Under the pieces are notes generated by a model that saw only the letters and a list, made by a program, of their open reading frames with translations, was not told the origin of the DNA and ran no database searches. 29,022 nucleotides of DNA, taken from NCBI GenBank assembly GCA_007128075.1, contig SKYD01000077.1:1-29022 (forward strand), written 5' to 3'. The DNA comes from Thiorhodovibrio sp. Its GTDB lineage: Bacteria; Pseudomonadota; Gammaproteobacteria; Chromatiales; Chromatiaceae. The position numbers and the translations under genes were made by a program. This document shows, in pieces, positions 2,126 through 8,664 of the stretch (within the stretch, counting starts at the first letter, position 1; the number at the start of each line of letters is the position of its first letter).

Positions 2126-2218
2126 AATCGCGGAGTGTCGGTGGGGGGGAATGGTGTAGACTTAAAACCTTGTGTCAGTGCCCTCGCCCGAACGGGCAGG
2201 GTTTTTTGGAGAATCCGC

Positions 2219-2443
2219 ATGACGACAATTGCCGATCTGATCTACGAGGAGGCCAAAACCTTGCCCGAGCACCAGGGCGCGGAAGTCTTGGACTTTATTG
2301 ACCACCTTCGCTCCCGCTCCTCTGTCAAGCCTGACTCGGAAAATCCATCGCAGCGGATGGTGGAATTGGAGGAATTCTTCTCCCAATACCCGCGAATTCC
2401 CAAAGACTTTAAGTTCAATCGGGAAGAAGCGAATGAGCGTTGA
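2219..2443 (+). CDS. DUF2281-type antitoxin (VapB-like)
   Basis: ATG at 2219. AKTLPEHQGAEVLDFIDHL resembles DUF2281, and the C-terminal FKFNREEANER is typical of PIN-associated antitoxins. Overlaps the PIN gene start. Confidence 0.7.
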   Translation: MTTIADLIYEEAKTLPEHQGAEVLDFIDHLRSRSSVKPDSENPSQRMVELEEFFSQYPRIPKDFKFNREEANER

Positions 2444-2639
2444 ATTTATCGATACCAATATCGCCCTATACAGCCTTAGCGAGGAACAGCCAAAACGCCG
2501 CATAGCACTTTCCATTCTAAGCCGCCAACCGACTATTTCATTACAGGTTCTCAATGAAGCAGCAAATGTGATGAGGCGAAGACTCGGATTCGATATCCCG
2601 ATAAGCCGATACACCTTGGCTTTGCGCTGCTTGGGGTAG
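2433..2639 (+). pseudogene. vapC: PIN-domain (VapC-like) toxin, 3'-truncated at ~2603
   Basis: FIDTNIALYSL and TISLQVLNEAANVMRRRL are PIN motifs. Homology ends after ~57 aa; the remaining codons are antisense Uma2 sequence. Confidence 0.8.
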
Positions 2640-3031
2640 AGCAAAACATAGTGCTCTACCCCTTCCTCTTGGTAGAGCTGGAACTTGGTCTGCTCATCGC
2701 GGCGTGCAGTTCTGGGCGAGATCACTTCAGCAATCAGCACCGGAGCGCGAGTGATGCGATCACCATCAGGCGGCGAGCAAATCACGATCACATCAGGGCG
2801 AGTGACCGTATCAGTTGAAAACTCGACATCAATTTCATAAATCACTTCACAGTTGGGGCAAGAATCAAGTGCCGTCGCCAGTTGCACGAACAAACGCCCA
2901 CCAATCCGCTGATGGTCAACATTGGGCGAGGGCGACATTGCAAGCGGAACGCCTCGAATCAGCTCCCAGTCCCCTTCCCAATGGCGGTAATCGTCGAGTG
3001 TGTAATATTCAATCGCGGCAACGGTGGACAT
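2603..3031 (-). pseudogene. Uma2/DUF820 family PD-(D/E)xK endonuclease, 3'-truncated
   Basis: ATG at 3031 with a GGAG RBS. WELIRG..LAMSPSP...HQRI, RPDVIV, IAEVISP, KFQLYQEEGVEHYVLLYP are Uma2 motifs. Homology ends at KVYRL (~2603); the frame then runs antisense through the TA genes to 2162. Confidence 0.75.
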
Positions 3032-3334
3032 TGATTTGGCTCCCAATGACAACGGATTGACTGCATATCTGCGATGGCTGATGATCGAGTATAAAGCAGA
3101 GCGCGGGAGGTGGTGGTAGACTGAACCCTGTGCGGTGGCTTGTCGAAAATATGTAATCAAGGTACACAAAAAATGCTTTCACCATCACAAGCTATACGGC
3201 TGCTTGGTTCATTAACAGTAAGTGGTGAACTAGCCCATCTTATCGCCAAAACAGCAAAAACTGGCGGAATCTCGTTTTAGTTCCAAGCTAAGATAGCATC
3301 GAACAAAAAACTTTTTTACTGCGAGGATAGTAAA

Positions 3335-5086
3335 ATGTCAAACATCATTACTGTTAATAAATTTCTTATGGACAAGATGTTTTCTATTCCAACATATCAG
3401 CGTGATTATGCTTGGACTATAACTCAAGTTGACGACTTGATGTCCGACATTCATGACGCTTTAGTCGAAAAATCTACGCACTATCTAGGGACGCTCGTTC
3501 TTGCTTGTATTCGCAACCAATCTTTTGAAATCGTTGATGGTCAGCAAAGGCTTTCAACGCTTACTTTAGTCATACGGGCACTGTTAAATGAGCTTGACCC
3601 TAATGGTAGATATCGAATAGTTAACGAAGATAATCTTCTTGGGGCTAAGCCTAATCTTAGACTTGATTTTGGTAAAAATCAGGGCTTTGTGGATGATATG
3701 TTTTCTGGTAAGCAAGCAATACCCGCAACATTGGGGCAGCGTAAATTGCTGAAAGCGTTTAATTTTGCTACAGAGCGAGCCAGAAACCTTAAACGCCAAG
3801 ACCAAGACGGAGAGCGCTTGGTGAAAGAATGGATTGATACAATAAAATCCTTAGAGATAATCGAATTTGTCGCCACTGATACTGGGCGTGCTATACGGAT
3901 GTTTCAGACAGTCAATGACCGGGGTGTGCCTTTGACATACATAGATAAAGCAAAAGCATTGCTGGTATATTTTTCTAATCGATACTTGAACGGGAAGCTT
4001 GATAGTAAAATTAGCGACGCTTTCGGTCAATGCTTTTCAGCTTTTGACTCTCTAAAAGAGTTTGTTAGCAAAACGGGATACCGCATTGACAATATTGCGC
4101 GGGATACATTCACCGAAGACGATATTTTGCGTTACCACTATCTTGCTTATCATAATGATGATGCACTTAATGTAACAGACTATGATGGTACGGTGCGAAC
4201 GGTGGTATTCGAAGGTTTCCTTAAAGGTACTTTAAAAAGCCTCTGTCAGCAACCTATAAAATTGGAATCATTTATTAATGATTATGTTGATGACCTTAGT
4301 CAATTTGCGCAGGCATTTGAGGGCTTGATTACCGGGGCGGAAAAGAATTCGCGCCTTTATAAGGTTTTTATTGTTCTAGGGCTTTCGGCGCGACTTTACC
4401 CTTTAGTAATTCGACTGTTCCAAAGGGATCTGCTGTTTCATGCTACAGCGCAAAATAATGGGATAGATCTTCTGCATTGCATTGAGGTGTGTGATGTTAG
4501 GATCTACAAAACAAGGGGAACTGACCCGGCTAAAGATATTGGAAGCATTTCCCACGGATCGCAGAAATCCTGTTCCAATGATATTGCCCAGAGAATCAAC
4601 GAATTCACTAAGCGATTTATGCCCGATTCAATTTTTCAAAACAGTCTTTCTCAAGATATGTACCATAATGGTGCTCTTTTGCATATTTTGCTTTGGCACG
4701 ACGAACAAGTAGCGAATTGCGAATATTCACTCGAAAAAATCTTCGATATGACAGTTAACCAAATGACACGGGAACATATACTTTCTCAAACTCCAAATTG
4801 GTCTGTTTGTGAACAAGGTTTTTTAGACGACGCTGATTTTGAAAGTCATTTGCATACTATTGGCAATCTTACGCTACTATCGGGATCCGAAAACTCTAAA
4901 TGCCAAAATCAGCCAGCATATACAAAAATGACTCCAGGGTTCTATGGCAGTTCTATTTATGCGGCAACTCGGCAACTAGCGCACAAATATGGCCCAACTT
5001 CGGAACAATTTGATAAGGATGCGTTAATTAACAGGACTAATGATATTGTTGCTGCTGTAATGAATAGATGGGCAATCTGTAATTAA
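3335..5086 (+). CDS. GmrSD-like / SspE-like DUF262-DUF1524 modification-dependent restriction nuclease
   Basis: N-terminal IPTYQRDYAW, IVDGQQRLSTL and FQTVNDRGVPL (DUF262). C-terminal EHILSQ and IGNLTLLSGSENSKCQN (DUF1524, HNH-like). GAGGA RBS. AT-rich relative to flanks. Confidence 0.85.
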   Translation: MSNIITVNKFLMDKMFSIPTYQRDYAWTITQVDDLMSDIHDALVEKSTHYLGTLVLACIRNQSFEIVDGQQRLSTLTLVIRALLNELDPNGRYRIVNEDNLLGAKPNLRLDFGKNQGFVDDMFSGKQAIPATLGQRKLLKAFNFATERARNLKRQDQDGERLVKEWIDTIKSLEIIEFVATDTGRAIRMFQTVNDRGVPLTYIDKAKALLVYFSNRYLNGKLDSKISDAFGQCFSAFDSLKEFVSKTGYRIDNIARDTFTEDDILRYHYLAYHNDDALNVTDYDGTVRTVVFEGFLKGTLKSLCQQPIKLESFINDYVDDLSQFAQAFEGLITGAEKNSRLYKVFIVLGLSARLYPLVIRLFQRDLLFHATAQNNGIDLLHCIEVCDVRIYKTRGTDPAKDIGSISHGSQKSCSNDIAQRINEFTKRFMPDSIFQNSLSQDMYHNGALLHILLWHDEQVANCEYSLEKIFDMTVNQMTREHILSQTPNWSVCEQGFLDDADFESHLHTIGNLTLLSGSENSKCQNQPAYTKMTPGFYGSSIYAATRQLAHKYGPTSEQFDKDALINRTNDIVAAVMNRWAICN

Positions 5087-5089
5087 AAG

Positions 5090-5965
5090 ATGACCAGCCA
5101 ACAAGACCTTGACATCGACCTCGACCCGATACTGTCTACTCACCCAGGGTTTCAATCCACCAACGGAAACTCAACCCACTATAGCCCACGCATCTTTTCA
5201 TGCTGCATCGGTCTAGGGCAGCAAACCAAGCCGCTACTGACAGCGTTGCGCCAGCATCAGACCGAACGCTTTGCTGTCGATGGTCTGTTTGTCCAATCTG
5301 GCGCAAAACTGTCAGTGTTGGAGGCTTGGTCAAATGGGACGCTGCTTCAAGTGCCTGATTTTGTGGTTGTGGCCATTGATGTGACAGATCCGCACGCTCT
5401 GGAATTAAGCCAATTGTGGGCAGAGATGCTGGCTGATCAACACACGGCTGGCAAAACCTATCGCGTTGCAATGCTCATCGGTGATGCCCCCTCGGCGATC
5501 ATGGCAGCCTTAAACCATGAATTGAGCACGAATTTCGGTTCTGTCATTCACATCCAGCCGCAACGGCGGGTTTTGCAGCACACCACCATAACCCGCCTCA
5601 CCATGGGAATGCTGTTTTTAAATAGCACCCTGATTTGCCATGACATGGGCGATTTACAATCTGTGCTGCGTGCTGGCAAACGAGTCCGCAGTGCCGCGAC
5701 TGTTTGGAACCATCCCGACCGTGAGCAACAGGCATTGGAGCGTTTGCTCACTCAGTTGCAACCGCAACACGCGAAAGGTGTCATCGCCTTGTTCTATCTT
5801 CCTTGGTTCGATAACACCATCGCTGAATATTCGCGCCTCACCGACAGCTTGCGTGATCGCTGGCCACTGTTGGATGAAATACCATTTTTTACCGTCACTT
5901 ATGGCCAAAAAATTTGGCGGAGCGGACGCTGGGTTCTCGTCTTGACTGTGGCAGAGGATGAATAA
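5090..5965 (+). CDS. Degenerate FtsZ/tubulin-fold protein lacking GTP-binding glycine motifs
   Basis: By-eye colinear similarity to FtsZ over the full core: CIGLG~VIGVG, PDFVVVA~ADMVFIA, ELSTNFGSVIHI~ELSKHVDSLITI, LICHDMGDLQSVL~LMNVDFADVRTVM, DREQQA~DRAEEA, AKGVI~ARGVL, IAEYSRLTDSLR~LDEFETVGNTIR. GGGTGTG is absent. Confidence 0.65.
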   Translation: MTSQQDLDIDLDPILSTHPGFQSTNGNSTHYSPRIFSCCIGLGQQTKPLLTALRQHQTERFAVDGLFVQSGAKLSVLEAWSNGTLLQVPDFVVVAIDVTDPHALELSQLWAEMLADQHTAGKTYRVAMLIGDAPSAIMAALNHELSTNFGSVIHIQPQRRVLQHTTITRLTMGMLFLNSTLICHDMGDLQSVLRAGKRVRSAATVWNHPDREQQALERLLTQLQPQHAKGVIALFYLPWFDNTIAEYSRLTDSLRDRWPLLDEIPFFTVTYGQKIWRSGRWVLVLTVAEDE

Positions 5966-6741
5966 TGGCGCAAGAATGTGTATTGGTTCAGCATCGTGGC
6001 TTAGTAACGCGAAACCAACAGGATGCGTTGCTGGTTGCCGATCAAGTGTGGCAGGCGGATGATGTGCCGCCCCGCGCTCATTCTCTCAACCCCAAGCAAG
6101 GATTGTGCGCAGTCGCCGATGGTGTTGCCGCGAGTAACAAACCCCAGAGGGCAAGCCGCGCTTTGCTGGAGATTCTATGCGATGCTCAGGATGACGCATC
6201 GGATCACTTTCAGGACGGCTGGCTTGGCCCACGCGCAGTGCGACGCTGGATTCACCCGCGCTTGTGTCGCCGATTATCAAGCCGACCAACATTGCGCACC
6301 AGTGCCACCACGCTCGCCATGCTGCAATGGCGCGATGGGCATTACAGCGCGCTCAATGTCGGCGATTCGCGGATTTACTGCATTTCCCCCGCTGGCGAAT
6401 GGCAACAGGTCTCGCTGGATCACACCTATTACCAATCGATGATTCAGCGCGGCGAATTACAGCGCGGCGCGAATGTCGGTCAGCTTTATCACGACCTTGA
6501 ACACATGATCAGCGCCGATGACAGCGAAGACGAGTTTGCGATTCATTGGCAGACTGGACAATTACCCGAGGCAGCGACTTGGCTACTGTGTACTGATGGC
6601 TTACACGACAGCCTAAGCCAGACCGAGATGCAAGCGCTGTTCGACCCCAAGGCACCACTCACCGAGATCGCCGAGCGTTACCGCCAAGCGGTGCTGGATG
6701 CAGGCGCACCAGATAATTTATCGTTCATTTTTTTGCGCTGA
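5965..6741 (+). CDS. PP2C/PPM family Ser/Thr protein phosphatase
   Basis: QQD, AVADG, NVGDSR, DH, LCTDGL and DNLS motifs with the metal-binding aspartates present. TAATG stop/start overlap with the upstream gene. Confidence 0.9.
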   Translation: MAQECVLVQHRGLVTRNQQDALLVADQVWQADDVPPRAHSLNPKQGLCAVADGVAASNKPQRASRALLEILCDAQDDASDHFQDGWLGPRAVRRWIHPRLCRRLSSRPTLRTSATTLAMLQWRDGHYSALNVGDSRIYCISPAGEWQQVSLDHTYYQSMIQRGELQRGANVGQLYHDLEHMISADDSEDEFAIHWQTGQLPEAATWLLCTDGLHDSLSQTEMQALFDPKAPLTEIAERYRQAVLDAGAPDNLSFIFLR

Positions 6742-6749
6742 ATCGATTC

Positions 6750-7394
6750 TCAATCCTGTGGTTGCACCTGCCGAAAATCCGCCCCCTGAAAAACCCGCAC
6801 CGCGTTGCCCCGCTCAAGCTGAGTATGCTGCCGCCAGCGCCGATCCTCGGTCGTGCGTTTTGTTGCCTCGGCGCGTTCATTGAGCAGCGTGGCAAGCCGC
6901 GCCAACGCCAACCGTCGGTTCAGGTGCTGCGAGCGTTCTTCTTGACCCAGCACGCTAATCCCTGTCGGCAGGTGGGTGATGCGCACCGCGCTCTCGGTGC
7001 GGTTGACATGCTGACCGCCAGAGCCAGAAGCGCGGAGGGTTTCAATGCGCAATTCGCGCTCGTTCCAAGTCTCGACCCTCGGTTCCGCGAAGGCAGCGAC
7101 ACTGACAAACCAGTTCTTGCGCTTGTGATGCGGTCGATAGGGGCTGGCGCCAATCCACTGAATGGTGCCAAGCCAGTCGGCGACCTGGCTATCCACCTCG
7201 GCACCGCTGACTCGCAGTAACACAGAGCGAGCATCGCCAGGGTGCTGACCGGGCACGCGGTCGATCTCTTCCACATCGAGACCCCGCGCTGGCAGCGCGG
7301 CGATCACACAGGATGCCAGCCGACCCACCACCCATTCGCATTCCGCTGGGCAGCGACCAGCGGAAAGTTGCAGCCACAGGGTTGGCGTGCTCAT
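6750..7394 (-). CDS. prfH: Peptide chain release factor H
   Basis: [13 protein letters not shown]-terminus, [24 protein letters not shown], and [16 protein letters not shown] (GGQ). ATGA overlap with the rtcB stop at 7391-7394. Confidence 0.9.
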
Positions 7395-8584
7395 CGCCGC
7401 CCCCGCTTGGGCTTGCGATCTTGGCGGTGTGAGTGCGTTCCTTGGCGATCTGGGCGACGGATTTTGTAAGTCAGCGCCGGGCGCAGGGTGGCAATGACCT
7501 GGCACAGGCCCGCATCGACCAAATCGGCAACGACGCGATCCACGGCTTTGTAGGCTTCCGGCGCTTCGTCATACAGCAGTTCCTTGTCTTCACACACAAC
7601 CCAACCGCCGAGCGCGGTCTTCTGTAAATCCTCGGGGCGTTGGCGAGCACTCAGACGCGGGCGAGCCTCGCCGCGTTTCCATTTACGCCCAGCGCCGTGG
7701 GCAAGCGAGCGCAAGCTGCTGTCAATCCCGTTGTCTTTTGTCAACAACGGCTTGACCAAATAAGACAGGCTGCCGCGTGAGCCGGGGATGACCACCGGCC
7801 CACGATCCGCCGGAGCAGCACCCTTGCGATGCAGCCACAGCGTCTCGCCCGTCCAGTCAATGGCTTGCACCAAATTGTGCCAGACATCCAGCCGCCGCTC
7901 ACCCTCCGCGCCCAAAGCATCGAGCAGGCGGAGCGCGATCAGCCGCCGATTGGCCTCGGCCCAACGGATGGCGTGATCATGCGCCTGGAGATAATCGCGG
8001 GCGGCAGCGGACGCTGGTTCCAACCCCGTGTGACCGTGCTGGTCGATGACCGTGCGCAAAACCGACTCCCCCAGCCCGCGTGAGCCGCTGTGAACCAGCA
8101 GCAACAGCCGTTCGGGGTCGAGATTGAGTTCAGCAACAGCGCTGGGATCAAACACCTCGGTCAAGCTCTGCACTTCAGCAAAATGATTGCCGCCGCCGAT
8201 GGTGCCAAGCGCCTGATCAAAGGCGGTGGGCGCAAGCCCCTGTTCAGTGCGCCAAGTGTCGAGGTCGCCGTCCCAAGGGCCTTCGAGCGCGGTCAAGCGT
8301 TCAGCAGCGCGTTCGGGCTTGAACTTGCGCACCGCCAGATCGGTCTGCCACAGCCCCATGCCGCAGCCGATGTCATTGCCGACCAGCGCCGGGTAGAGGC
8401 GATCAGCGAGAAACGCCGCGCCGATGGGATAGCCCTTGCCGGGATGAAGATCAGGCAGACCGACGGCGGCGCACATGCCAGGCAGCGCGGCGGTGTGTTC
8501 CAATTGGCGCAGAGCTTCGCCTTCGATCCAGGTCTCCGAGGAGGCGATGAGGTGAACGGGCGTTTTGTCCAAGCTGTTGTCCAT
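7391..8584 (-). CDS. rtcB: PrfH-coupled RtcB-family RNA ligase (RtcB2)
   Basis: [55 protein letters not shown] and EAPEAYK motifs. Likely start is the ATG at 8584 (MDNSLD); the ORF track extends to 8641. Confidence 0.9.
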
Positions 8585-8664
8585 GTCAATGGGTTTTGAA
8601 GACGGGTTGATGACTGAGTGTTTGAAATTTTTTGTTATCAAGCAATCGCCATTAGTTTTGAAGC

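Follow-up and report, generated by a model that had tools for sequence, protein, structure and literature searches.

A degenerate FtsZ paralogue linked to a PP2C phosphatase and to rtcB-prfH in a mosaic accessory islet of Thiorhodovibrio sp.

The window analysed here is a stretch of 29,022 nucleotides from Thiorhodovibrio sp., a purple sulfur bacterium of the Chromatiaceae from a soda lake. Positions 2162-8641 form a mosaic accessory islet, made of separate modules whose composition points to three or more sources, and lying beside the conserved smr/surE-pcm-nlpD block (Table 1). Synteny of this block (smr/surE-pcm-VTT-nlpD) is kept in four of the six relatives compared, and in these four none of the six islet genes, the Uma2 gene included, adjoins smr. 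The GC content is 39.8% for the GmrSD-type gene, 52.2% for the gene here called X, 56.6% for the PP2C gene and 63-64% for prfH and rtcB, against 54.9% for the window. Every junction is bridged by contigs of three DNA samples, one of them dated 2012, with 0-2 differences, so the arrangement is not an assembly artefact; it is the same in samples of 2012 and 2019. In an RNA library from the source sample, contigs, which show presence only, lie on the GmrSD gene and on rtcB/prfH, and none lies on X.

Table 1. Genes of the accessory islet in the window.
Feature	Position	Strand	Basis and remarks
Uma2-family (PD-(D/E)XK-like) putative endonuclease	2162..3169	-	PF05685, E 1.2e-25; left edge of islet
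GmrSD-type Type IV restriction enzyme, HEC-06-like	3335..5086	+	PF03235, PF07510, PADLOC HEC-06
X, degenerate FtsZ paralogue, 291 aa	5090..5965	+	Profile homology, AF2 model, Foldseek
PP2C-family Ser/Thr phosphatase, 258 aa	5965..6741	+	PF13672, E 7e-15
prfH (release factor H)	6750..7505	-	TIGR03072, E 7e-72
rtcB2-type RNA ligase of the RtcB-PrfH ribosome-repair pair	7391..8641	-	NF007153, E 1e-152; TIGR03073, E 6.5e-142

The Uma2 gene also matches the PADLOC candidate PDC-S03 (E 8e-25). The three genes that follow it are co-oriented in the open reading frame list, as the original prediction had stated. The stop codon of the GmrSD gene (TAA, 5084-5086) is separated from the ATG of X (5090) by the three nucleotides AAG, with no Shine-Dalgarno sequence ahead of the X start at this junction, and X and PP2C overlap in a TAATG at 5963-5967, with a GAGGA Shine-Dalgarno sequence preceding the PP2C start. 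By this overlap and the GAGGA, X and PP2C are translationally coupled. The prfH gene converges on PP2C, the two stops lying 8 bp apart (6739-6752). The accessory or defence-island setting and the identities first assigned to the three genes (GmrSD, pseudo-FtsZ and PP2C) were also borne out.

The GmrSD protein combines GmrSD_N (PF03235, DUF262; E 1.3e-32) and GmrSD_C (PF07510, DUF1524; E 3.2e-16), both above the cut-off, in one polypeptide; its best PADLOC model is HEC-06 (E 1.4e-45), a family in which defence has been demonstrated with a single gene. Its translation contains DGQQR and EHILS, motifs whose roles are taken from 10.1101/2024.01.29.577857. Like HEC-06, BrxU (HEC-05) and SspE, the protein joins a DUF262 domain with DGQQR to a DUF1524 domain with an EHxxP-type HNH motif, but it stands outside any Hma, BREX or Ssp system. 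With a GC3 of 35% its gene is a compositional outlier. Homologs of 50-62% identity are found in many phyla with X and PP2C absent nearby, and the closest of them (58-62%) come from other phyla and from three different contexts; the other island GmrSD-like proteins are only about 24% identical to it. The window gene is a recent low-GC arrival and appears to be a self-sufficient module, separate from X-PP2C and belonging to a widely transferred single-gene family, and it would act on modified DNA independently of X-PP2C. The caveat originally attached to this AT-rich gene, that it may be a later insertion, thus holds, and the fixed GmrSD, X and PP2C system proposed with it is not supported; the matching HEC-06 family defends alone.

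The X protein has no match in Pfam, NCBIfam or PADLOC, and none to the Tubulin/FtsZ GTPase models PF00091 and TIGR00065. A profile of its family (A1) finds FtsZ chains of the PDB with an E-value of 2.9e-5 over the T7 loop and the C-domain, and hhalign of the family against the FtsZ of its own genome gives E 1.9e-5 and a probability of 78%, in the C-terminal half only. In 351 of 380 Chromatiaceae genomes the same profile also matches a single ORF, of about 400 aa, which is presumably the housekeeping FtsZ, as verified for the genome of the window. The AF2 model of X (pLDDT 82, pTM 0.81) has the two-domain fold of the FtsZ/tubulin type, with a Rossmann-like N-domain, H7, T7 loop and C-terminal domain; its top 45 Foldseek matches in the PDB are all FtsZ (E about 1e-11, TM 0.5-0.6, about 0.58, over about 310 columns), and its neighbours in AFDB and Atlas are FtsZ or tubulin. 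The motifs show that the T1 loop is reduced to G41-L42-G43 (G-L-G-Q-Q), that D97-V-T-D100-P takes the place of the tubulin signature GGGTGTG at the T4 position, and that the T7-like loop has lost its Asn and keeps D185 and D188, aligned to both aspartates of the FtsZ T7 loop (NVDFADV), D209 and D212 in E. coli numbering. Residues 1-35 are disordered and hold no leader, and an FtsZ_C-like domain covers 198-289. Across the family D97 and D100 are invariant, D185 and D188 near-invariant and GLG conserved, the best-conserved patch being the former nucleotide pocket (GxG and DxxD). Judged from these comparisons, X is a genuine FtsZ paralogue without the glycine-rich GTP-binding loops (T1, T4) and with both T7 aspartates. 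It shares with FtsZ (TIGR00065, PF00091+PF12327) the fold over its full length, the profile homology across T7 and C-terminal domain and these two catalytic residues, whereas it lacks the GTPase-domain match and differs in its DxxD and GLG, in an N-domain about 50 residues shorter, in having no C-terminal linker or tail and in a gene that is island-borne, multi-copy and often broken.

The X family counts 18 representatives in 1.84 billion proteins and, in the databases and genomes searched, is confined to genomes of Chromatiaceae and to unplaced contigs of metagenomes; a search of the plasmid collection gave a single match, on the Thiodictyon plasmid pTs485. Three metagenomic homologs (P0005-P0007) lie on contigs too short for the neighbourhood comparison and were left out of it. 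Another difference from FtsZ is that most X homologs start with a signal-like leader of the twin-arginine type (M-x-R-R-x-F/W-L...AxA), after which comes a linker rich in Pro and Ala. The pattern of RR, h-region and AxA was read by eye; PF10518 is the only Pfam match for four of ten leaders, with E 0.004-0.14 and below its 22.7-bit cut-off, and the Tat model TIGR01409 gives no significant match on full-length X homologs. The window copy belongs to a leaderless clade (with L001, L011, G034 and G228) whose own N-terminus is conserved. Pseudogenes and fragments are frequent among the X copies.

The PP2C protein scores 55.6 bits against PF13672 (PP2C_2), with a cut-off of 24 bits, and carries the metal-site motifs RNQQD, ADG, TDGL (DG, DGL) and DN; against the Stp1/IreP model NF033484 it reaches 92.3 bits (E 3e-26), under the 230-bit equivalog cut-off. 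Its subfamily (at least 50% identity) is present in 29 of the 380 Chromatiaceae genomes. X and PP2C stand side by side in eight or more lineages and in every case of a shared contig, over three clades of the X tree and in four arrangements: X precedes PP2C in the window, X is followed by c22 and then PP2C in L001 and L008, PP2C precedes X in G297 and G298, and the two genes converge in genus g25 and G158. The gene c22 of these nearest relatives is absent from the genome of the window; it has no Pfam match, a poor AF2 model (pLDDT 63) and no fold match in the PDB (best E 1.5). Another candidate gene, c17, was dropped, as it looks like a spurious Arg-rich ORF. The original suggestion that pseudo-FtsZ and PP2C may be the conserved core holds. 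The two genes do not always occur together: 10 or more genomes have the PP2C subfamily but no X, and many X copies stand without PP2C. DUF262 genes of other subfamilies recur beside X or PP2C, most X and PP2C loci are without DUF262, and no kinase was seen nearby. No family of the PADLOC-DB 2.0 system proteins matches X, its homologs or PP2C, and a literature search for a defence link of FtsZ-like, PP2C or RtcB proteins returned nothing relevant. That X and PP2C form a functional two-gene conflict module is a reading we consider somewhat more likely than not. PP2C phosphatases acting on or with FtsZ are represented by SpoIIE in Bacillus and by PstP/PknA in mycobacteria; as in the window, a genetic link joins an FtsZ-type protein to the catalytic domain of a PP2C. 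The window PP2C, however, consists of that domain alone; it has neither membrane nor regulatory domains, and no kinase gene lies close to it.

The window PrfH scores 241 bits against the 167-bit cut-off of TIGR03072, and RtcB scores 473 against 272 bits for TIGR03073 and 508 against 407 for NF007153. Both proteins thus fall within the curated equivalogs for PrfH and for release-factor-associated RtcB, and their genes are adjacent, co-oriented and overlapping, as in the operon-like RtcB2-PrfH rescue and repair module (PMC9304027; PMC9223846; PMC13166195). Alignment to island PrfH homologs begins at 7394; the true prfH start is likely near this position, overlapping the rtcB stop, and that of rtcB is likely about 25-28 codons inside the ORF 7391..8641. 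Experiments have shown that RtcB2-PrfH acts as a repair module against colicin E3 (PMC9304027; PMC9223846). The accessory genes described for RFH-RtcB modules in the main text of PMC6514570 encode TPR, Pol-beta NTase, ZnR and charged-helix proteins; an FtsZ-fold gene or PP2C is not among them there. At least seven of the genomes compared have X directly upstream of rtcB, prfH or both: it is co-oriented with them in G031 (twice), G354, G158, G303 and G306, and it adjoins prfH alone in G313 and on pTs485. The window RtcB shares 80% identity with the X-linked RtcB proteins of G031 and G354, and the X homologs of the X-rtcB-prfH arrangements also carry the leader. About 10 of about 27 prfH places adjoin X, and prfH often occurs without it. 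The rtcB-prfH operon, convergent in the window, is the other recurrent partner of X; neither it nor the Tat-like leader had figured in the original prediction. Island markers near X or PP2C include WYL, PDDEXK_4, McrBC and GmrSD_N, and X and the PP2C subfamily share one island gene pool with rtcB-prfH, with GmrSD-like, PDDEXK_4 and McrBC nucleases, with a double AAA+ ATPase and its small partner, and with a WYL regulator. The anatomy of the locus and the homology of its genes, taken jointly, are very likely as given here.

It is proposed that X of the leaderless clade would stay in the cytoplasm, where its T7 face would bind host FtsZ at the end that carries the nucleotide. Being itself free of nucleotide, X would act as a cap or poison and pause division while the nucleases and RtcB-PrfH handle an attack, and PP2C would set or reset its activity. 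Together with the mosaic islet, the X-PP2C conflict module and the independent GmrSD, this is the explanation we favour as a whole, tentatively and at somewhat less than an even chance; the capping of FtsZ by X, taken by itself, is doubtful. The modelled X-FtsZ complex has an ipSAE of 0.42 against 0.00 for the best control. Of 80 solved complexes 58 reached the ipSAE mark, as did 2 of 110 mismatched pairs, and the range up to 0.60 held only 7 of the 80 yet both passing mismatches, so the support for the complex is weak. Its interface is of the canonical filament type, with the T1-T6/H7 top of FtsZ facing residues 181-188 (T7) and the C-domain of X, and the model may reproduce FtsZ filaments of known structure. 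The same weak docking is what speaks for the original proposal that X blocks host division or interferes with PhuZ. If the T7 aspartates are set aside, the residues of X predicted to touch FtsZ are no better conserved than the rest (0.48 against 0.52, permutation p 0.88), and the conservation of the pocket suggests a ligand or self-assembly. Capping is disfavoured as the general role of the family because most homologs carry the Tat-like leader; such proteins, if exported, could not cap FtsZ. Protein inhibitors of FtsZ assembly include SulA, which is co-induced with repair genes, MciZ, CbtA/YeeV and phage Kil. The action proposed for X resembles theirs, a substoichiometric block of the filament end or interface that ties a division pause to damage or conflict, and its co-location with rtcB-prfH resembles the repair-gene association of SulA. 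To our knowledge, however, none of these inhibitors has an FtsZ fold, whereas X, known from sequence and model, would be a defective FtsZ-fold subunit. A wider form of the proposal is distinctly unlikely: X would open a new class of conflict-island effectors or regulators, as an FtsZ-derived, nucleotide-free "dead subunit" that caps host FtsZ filaments or decoys phage division inhibitors, switched by PP2C and coupled to RtcB-PrfH as a SulA-like checkpoint for RNA damage or phage attack, with leader-bearing paralogues exported to the periplasm as a second use.

Another explanation dispenses with FtsZ binding: X would be a pseudo-enzyme built on the FtsZ scaffold, either exported through Tat or ligand-binding, and would join RtcB-PrfH and PP2C in countering incoming toxins. 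It might, for instance, catch a colicin-like ribotoxin in the periplasm, or its remodelled GxG/DxxD pocket might detect a small molecule or metal; the window copy would be a leaderless derivative. We regard this as rather unlikely, even though the leader of most homologs, the position of X upstream of rtcB and/or prfH, the anti-colicin activity of RtcB2-PrfH reported in PMC9304027 and PMC9223846, and the highest conservation lying in the former nucleotide pocket and not on the docking face all speak for it, and loss of the GTP loops is expected where GTP is unavailable. Against it stand the conserved N-terminus of the leaderless window clade, Tat models below threshold, and both T7 aspartates, whose conservation is difficult to account for unless X makes a longitudinal contact of the tubulin type. 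We also know of no periplasmic FtsZ-fold protein.

The genes might alternatively share no function, X, PP2C, GmrSD and rtcB-prfH being unrelated cargo of one recombination hotspot and X perhaps decaying. The frequent X pseudogenes, the PP2C and prfH genes without X, the variable gene order and orientation and the lack of RNA contigs over X (presence-only evidence) agree with this, but it sits poorly with the adjacency of X and PP2C in all shared contigs across three clades and four arrangements, their TAATG overlap with its Shine-Dalgarno sequence, the confident fold and invariant motifs of X, and an arrangement unchanged between 2012 and 2019; we consider it improbable. Slightly more improbable still is one integrated defence system in which GmrSD, X and PP2C are transcribed and act together. 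The 3-nt gap without a Shine-Dalgarno sequence suggests coupled translation of GmrSD and X, and GmrSD-like (DUF262) genes of other subfamilies recur beside PP2C and/or X (in the order GmrSD, PP2C, X in G297, and in G158, G031, G081, L068, L072 and, by a weaker match, L071). Yet most loci of X and PP2C contain no DUF262 gene, the gene upstream of X in its nearest relatives is NT5C and not GmrSD, and the deviant composition of the window GmrSD, its low identity to the island GmrSD-like proteins, its close homologs in unrelated phyla without X or PP2C and the protection by HEC-06 alone all speak against it. A TubZ-like role of X in the partition or maintenance of a mobile element would fit the tubulin-superfamily fold, the copy on pTs485 and the DnaB_C-like and DnaA/IstB-like ATPases adjoining two X copies. 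This role is rejected as extremely improbable, for lack of the GTP motifs and partners: X lacks the GTP-binding signature, the window shows neither a centromere-binding partner nor a replication module, the fold search places TubZ far behind FtsZ, and the window locus is chromosomal, between housekeeping genes.

The islet illustrates that defence-island genes only 3 nt apart do not necessarily form one system, GmrSD being an independent insertion here. In the catalogues and papers searched, we found neither a branch of FtsZ without the GTP-binding signature nor the signal-like leader of most of its members, nor its repeated linkage to PP2C and rtcB-prfH. If X and PP2C work as proposed, X would be an inhibitor or mimic of FtsZ that itself has the FtsZ fold, the first such protein from a defence island, and the pair would provide the first link between RtcB-PrfH repair of ribosome damage and the control of cell division.

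The gene lying between the GmrSD and PP2C genes, here called X, has no match in Pfam, NCBIfam or PADLOC, and its family is tiny, with 2 clusters in a set of 5.8 billion proteins and 18 representatives in one of 1.84 billion. A profile of the family built from 17 members (A1) matched FtsZ chains of the PDB at E 2.9e-5 over the T7 loop and the C-terminal domain, the DxxD of the family aligning with both aspartates of the FtsZ T7 loop, which we take to be D209 and D212 in E. coli numbering; hhalign of the family against the genome's own FtsZ gave E 1.9e-5. In 351 of the 380 genomes of the order the same profile picks a single ORF of some 400 aa, taken to be the housekeeping FtsZ. The AF2 model of X is confident (pLDDT 82, pTM 0.81), and FtsZ accounts for all of the 45 top PDB neighbours, at full length with E of about 1e-11, in agreement with the AFDB and ESM Atlas neighbours of X. 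Reading the model strands against the sequence reveals that D97-V-T-D100-P stands in place of the T4 tubulin signature and T1 is shortened to G-L-G, and that the T7-like loop has two nearly invariant residues, D185 and D188. The assignment of the middle gene as a pseudo-FtsZ in the original prediction is therefore correct, on the evidence of profile, fold and replaced T4 and T1 motifs. Judged from these motifs, canonical GTP binding by X seems unlikely; a different ligand or a metal might occupy the conserved GxG/DxxD pocket.

Positions of the islet genes in the window (window GC 54.9%) and of related features in other loci (L, loci; G, genomes, G000 being the window's own; C, contigs)
Feature	Position	Strand	GC	Match or remark
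Uma2-family endonuclease	2162-3169	-		PADLOC candidate PDC-S03
GmrSD	3335-5086	+	39.8%	Pfam GmrSD_N plus GmrSD_C; PADLOC HEC-06, E 1.4e-45
X	5090-5965	+	52%	FtsZ-fold, by profile and AF2 model
PP2C	5965-6741	+	57%	Pfam PP2C_2
prfH and rtcB	6750-8641	-	63-64%	both above curated equivalog cut-offs
Leader-bearing X homologs	L009:9064-9996; L053:9791-10783(-); L044:9394-10386(-)			examples
Broken X genes	G031:C1:419472-419974; G031:C1:2252630-2253189; G354:C1:4652854-4653281; L036; L049; L061			examples
c3 and double AAA+ ATPase	L009:845-3865(-); L084:2356-5070			L084 on G000 contig C169
PDDEXK_4 nuclease and HExxH protein	L054:5704-6459; L053:6942-8327			genus g25, preceding PP2C
Four-gene operon led by X	L010:3567-10484(-); L047:3429-10361(-)			G034 and G228
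Tubulin/CetZ_C protein	L066:1504-2685			G000 contig C119
ftsZ-annotated and Sir2-family genes	L064:4013-6024			plasmid pTs485

ORF reading of the window found the three co-oriented genes exactly as originally predicted. The GmrSD stop TAA (5084-5086) is followed by AAG and then the X start ATG, and in the TAATG at 5963-5967 one base is common to the TAA of X and the ATG of PP2C. A GAGGA Shine-Dalgarno sequence precedes the PP2C start, and none was seen at the junction ahead of X. Convergent to PP2C, with 8 bp between the PP2C and prfH stops, lies a complete rtcB-prfH operon, absent from the original prediction, with a GC content above the rest of the window. The Uma2-family gene is another stand-alone defence-type gene here. 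Because contigs of three soda/salt-lake DNA samples, one of them dated 2012, span all junctions with 0-2 differences, the arrangement is not a mis-assembly. The right flank (smr / surE-pcm-VTT-nlpD) keeps its synteny in four of six relatives, where none of the six islet genes was found beside smr; the stretch 2162-8641 is therefore an accessory islet, which bears out the accessory-island setting proposed earlier. In the RNA library of the source sample, contigs cover GmrSD and rtcB/prfH and none covers X, which is weak evidence.

GmrSD, X and PP2C had been proposed to form one integrated defence system, with the caveat that GmrSD is more AT-rich than the other two genes and that the conserved core might be pseudo-FtsZ plus PP2C. 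The base composition is as that caveat stated (Table). In favour of the integrated system, six or seven loci have a DUF262 gene next to PP2C and/or X, among them genome G297 with the order GmrSD, PP2C, X. However, the GmrSD-like genes of other X/PP2C islands share just about 24% identity with the window GmrSD, and the nearest relative of X has an NT5C gene upstream in place of GmrSD. The closest GmrSD homologs are full-length and 50-62% identical (Desulfobacteraceae, Methylosarcina, Thermanaeromonas, Bryobacterales, Bacteroidota and others), and the three contexts examined, one of them a Rep3 plasmid, contain no X or PP2C neighbour. Moreover, HEC-06, the best PADLOC placement of the window GmrSD, is protective in E. 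coli as a lone gene and requires the DGQQR and EHxxP motifs (10.1101/2024.01.29.577857), both kept in the window protein. An integrated three-gene system is improbable, and GmrSD is a module separate from X-PP2C. Given the recurrence of DUF262 genes, a functional link of a looser kind is possible, in which PP2C would have a "nuclease slot" beside it.

The neighbourhoods of X draw repeatedly on one pool of genes. It comprises a double AAA+ ATPase (about 750 aa) preceded by its small partner c3, a WYL-WCX regulator, a PDDEXK_4 nuclease, a HExxH protein (c8), c22, GmrSD_N proteins and McrBC, a PP2C subfamily and rtcB-prfH. Homologs of X, for which the original prediction suggested a tally of gene neighbourhoods, do recur with PP2C and defence-type genes, but window-type GmrSD is not a fixed partner. 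X lies next to PP2C in four arrangements: X then PP2C (the window), X-c22-PP2C (L001 and G031), PP2C then X (G297 and G298) and PP2C convergent with X (genus g25 and G158), and these linkages are spread over three separate clades of the X tree. Since X and PP2C are adjacent wherever they are on one contig, with at most one gene between, the pseudo-FtsZ plus PP2C core is supported. The PP2C subfamily (50% identity or more) occurs at 32 places in 29 of 380 genomes, about 13 beside X and the remainder in the same island type without X.

The rtcB-prfH pair adds a third recurrent partner. X precedes rtcB and/or prfH at close range, co-oriented, in G031 (two instances, one with an intervening DnaB_C-like gene), G354, G158, G303 and G306, and adjoins prfH alone in G313; prfH is above cut-off in 22 genomes, with about 10 of some 27 places beside X. 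RtcB-PrfH is an experimentally characterised ribosome rescue and repair module countering colicin E3 (PMC9304027, PMC9223846, PMC13166195). The accessory genes of RFH-RtcB given in the main text of PMC6514570 include neither an FtsZ-like gene nor a PP2C.

Other members of the pool form sets of their own. The c3/double AAA+ ATPase pair occurs at many loci, marks nearly all X/PP2C islands and is often accompanied by the WYL-WCX regulator; the AAA domain of the ATPase resembles IetA/TRIP13 models, and the window's own genome carries the pair on another contig, without X. In genus g25 the PDDEXK_4 nuclease and a 251-aa protein with a HExxH metalloprotease-like motif precede PP2C, and the c8/PDDEXK_4/PP2C set recurs in other genomes without X. 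A leaderless X is first in a tightly overlapping four-gene operon in G034 and G228, followed by a 431-aa protein, a 634-aa protein (weak Tdp-like match) and a 910-aa SNF2 helicase (DrmD/BrxH-like), which looks like a separate candidate system; the double AAA+ ATPase is just upstream in G228, and only a 118-aa remnant of it is left in G034.

For the leaderless X of the window, binding to the end of an FtsZ filament, with PP2C as regulator, would be the likeliest single action, and a tentative one. In the in silico complex of X residues 30-291 with residues 1-325 of the genome's own FtsZ, ipSAE was 0.42 against 0.00 for the best control. Of 80 solved complexes 58 reached the ipSAE mark, as did 2 of 110 mismatched pairs; only 7 of the 80 but both passing mismatches stand at 0.60 or under, so the predicted complex is weak support for capping. 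In the model the two proteins meet through the canonical longitudinal interface (the FtsZ T1-T6/H7 nucleotide face against the T7 loop, 181-188, and C-domain of X), which may reproduce that of solved FtsZ filaments. Most X homologs bear a twin-arginine signal-like leader, M-x-R-R-x-(F/W/I)-(L/I)...G-A-G...AxA, and a Pro/Ala-rich linker of 30-60 aa ahead of the FtsZ-like core; PF10518 is the only Pfam match in 4 of 10 leaders, below threshold. The window clade lacks the leader and conserves an N-terminus of its own. Conservation of the predicted FtsZ-contact residues does not exceed that of the rest of X (p 0.88), the best-conserved patch being the old nucleotide pocket. These findings argue against capping as the general role of the family, and both the leader and the conserved pocket speak for an exported or ligand-binding protein instead, a reading that is possible for the family, next in rank to capping, which stays our first choice for the window X.

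All genome-level matches to X are from Chromatiaceae. One of them, which also settles the taxonomy, lies on pTs485, a plasmid of Ca. Thiodictyon syntrophicum; the metagenome representatives come without taxonomy. Strong matches occur in about 30 of the 380 genomes, often in multiple copies and frequently as fragments or with stops. The genes are often truncated, frameshifted or split, at times beside an intact PP2C, with 4-6 copies or fragments in several genomes, a sign of rapid turnover. Another contig of the window's own genome encodes a protein of 393 aa that combines a Tubulin GTPase domain with a CetZ_C domain (E 4e-16), an unusual bacterial copy since CetZ is regarded as archaeal. On pTs485, about 6 kb from its X-prfH pair, a Sir2-family gene comes immediately after a gene annotated ftsZ (363 aa), which may be a further gene of tubulin type paired in a defence-like way. 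GmrSD, PP2C and RtcB-PrfH of the islet are ordinary examples of kinds already known. X represents a new, degenerate FtsZ/tubulin-superfamily branch whose genomic association is undescribed, and together with PP2C it probably constitutes a functional conflict module.
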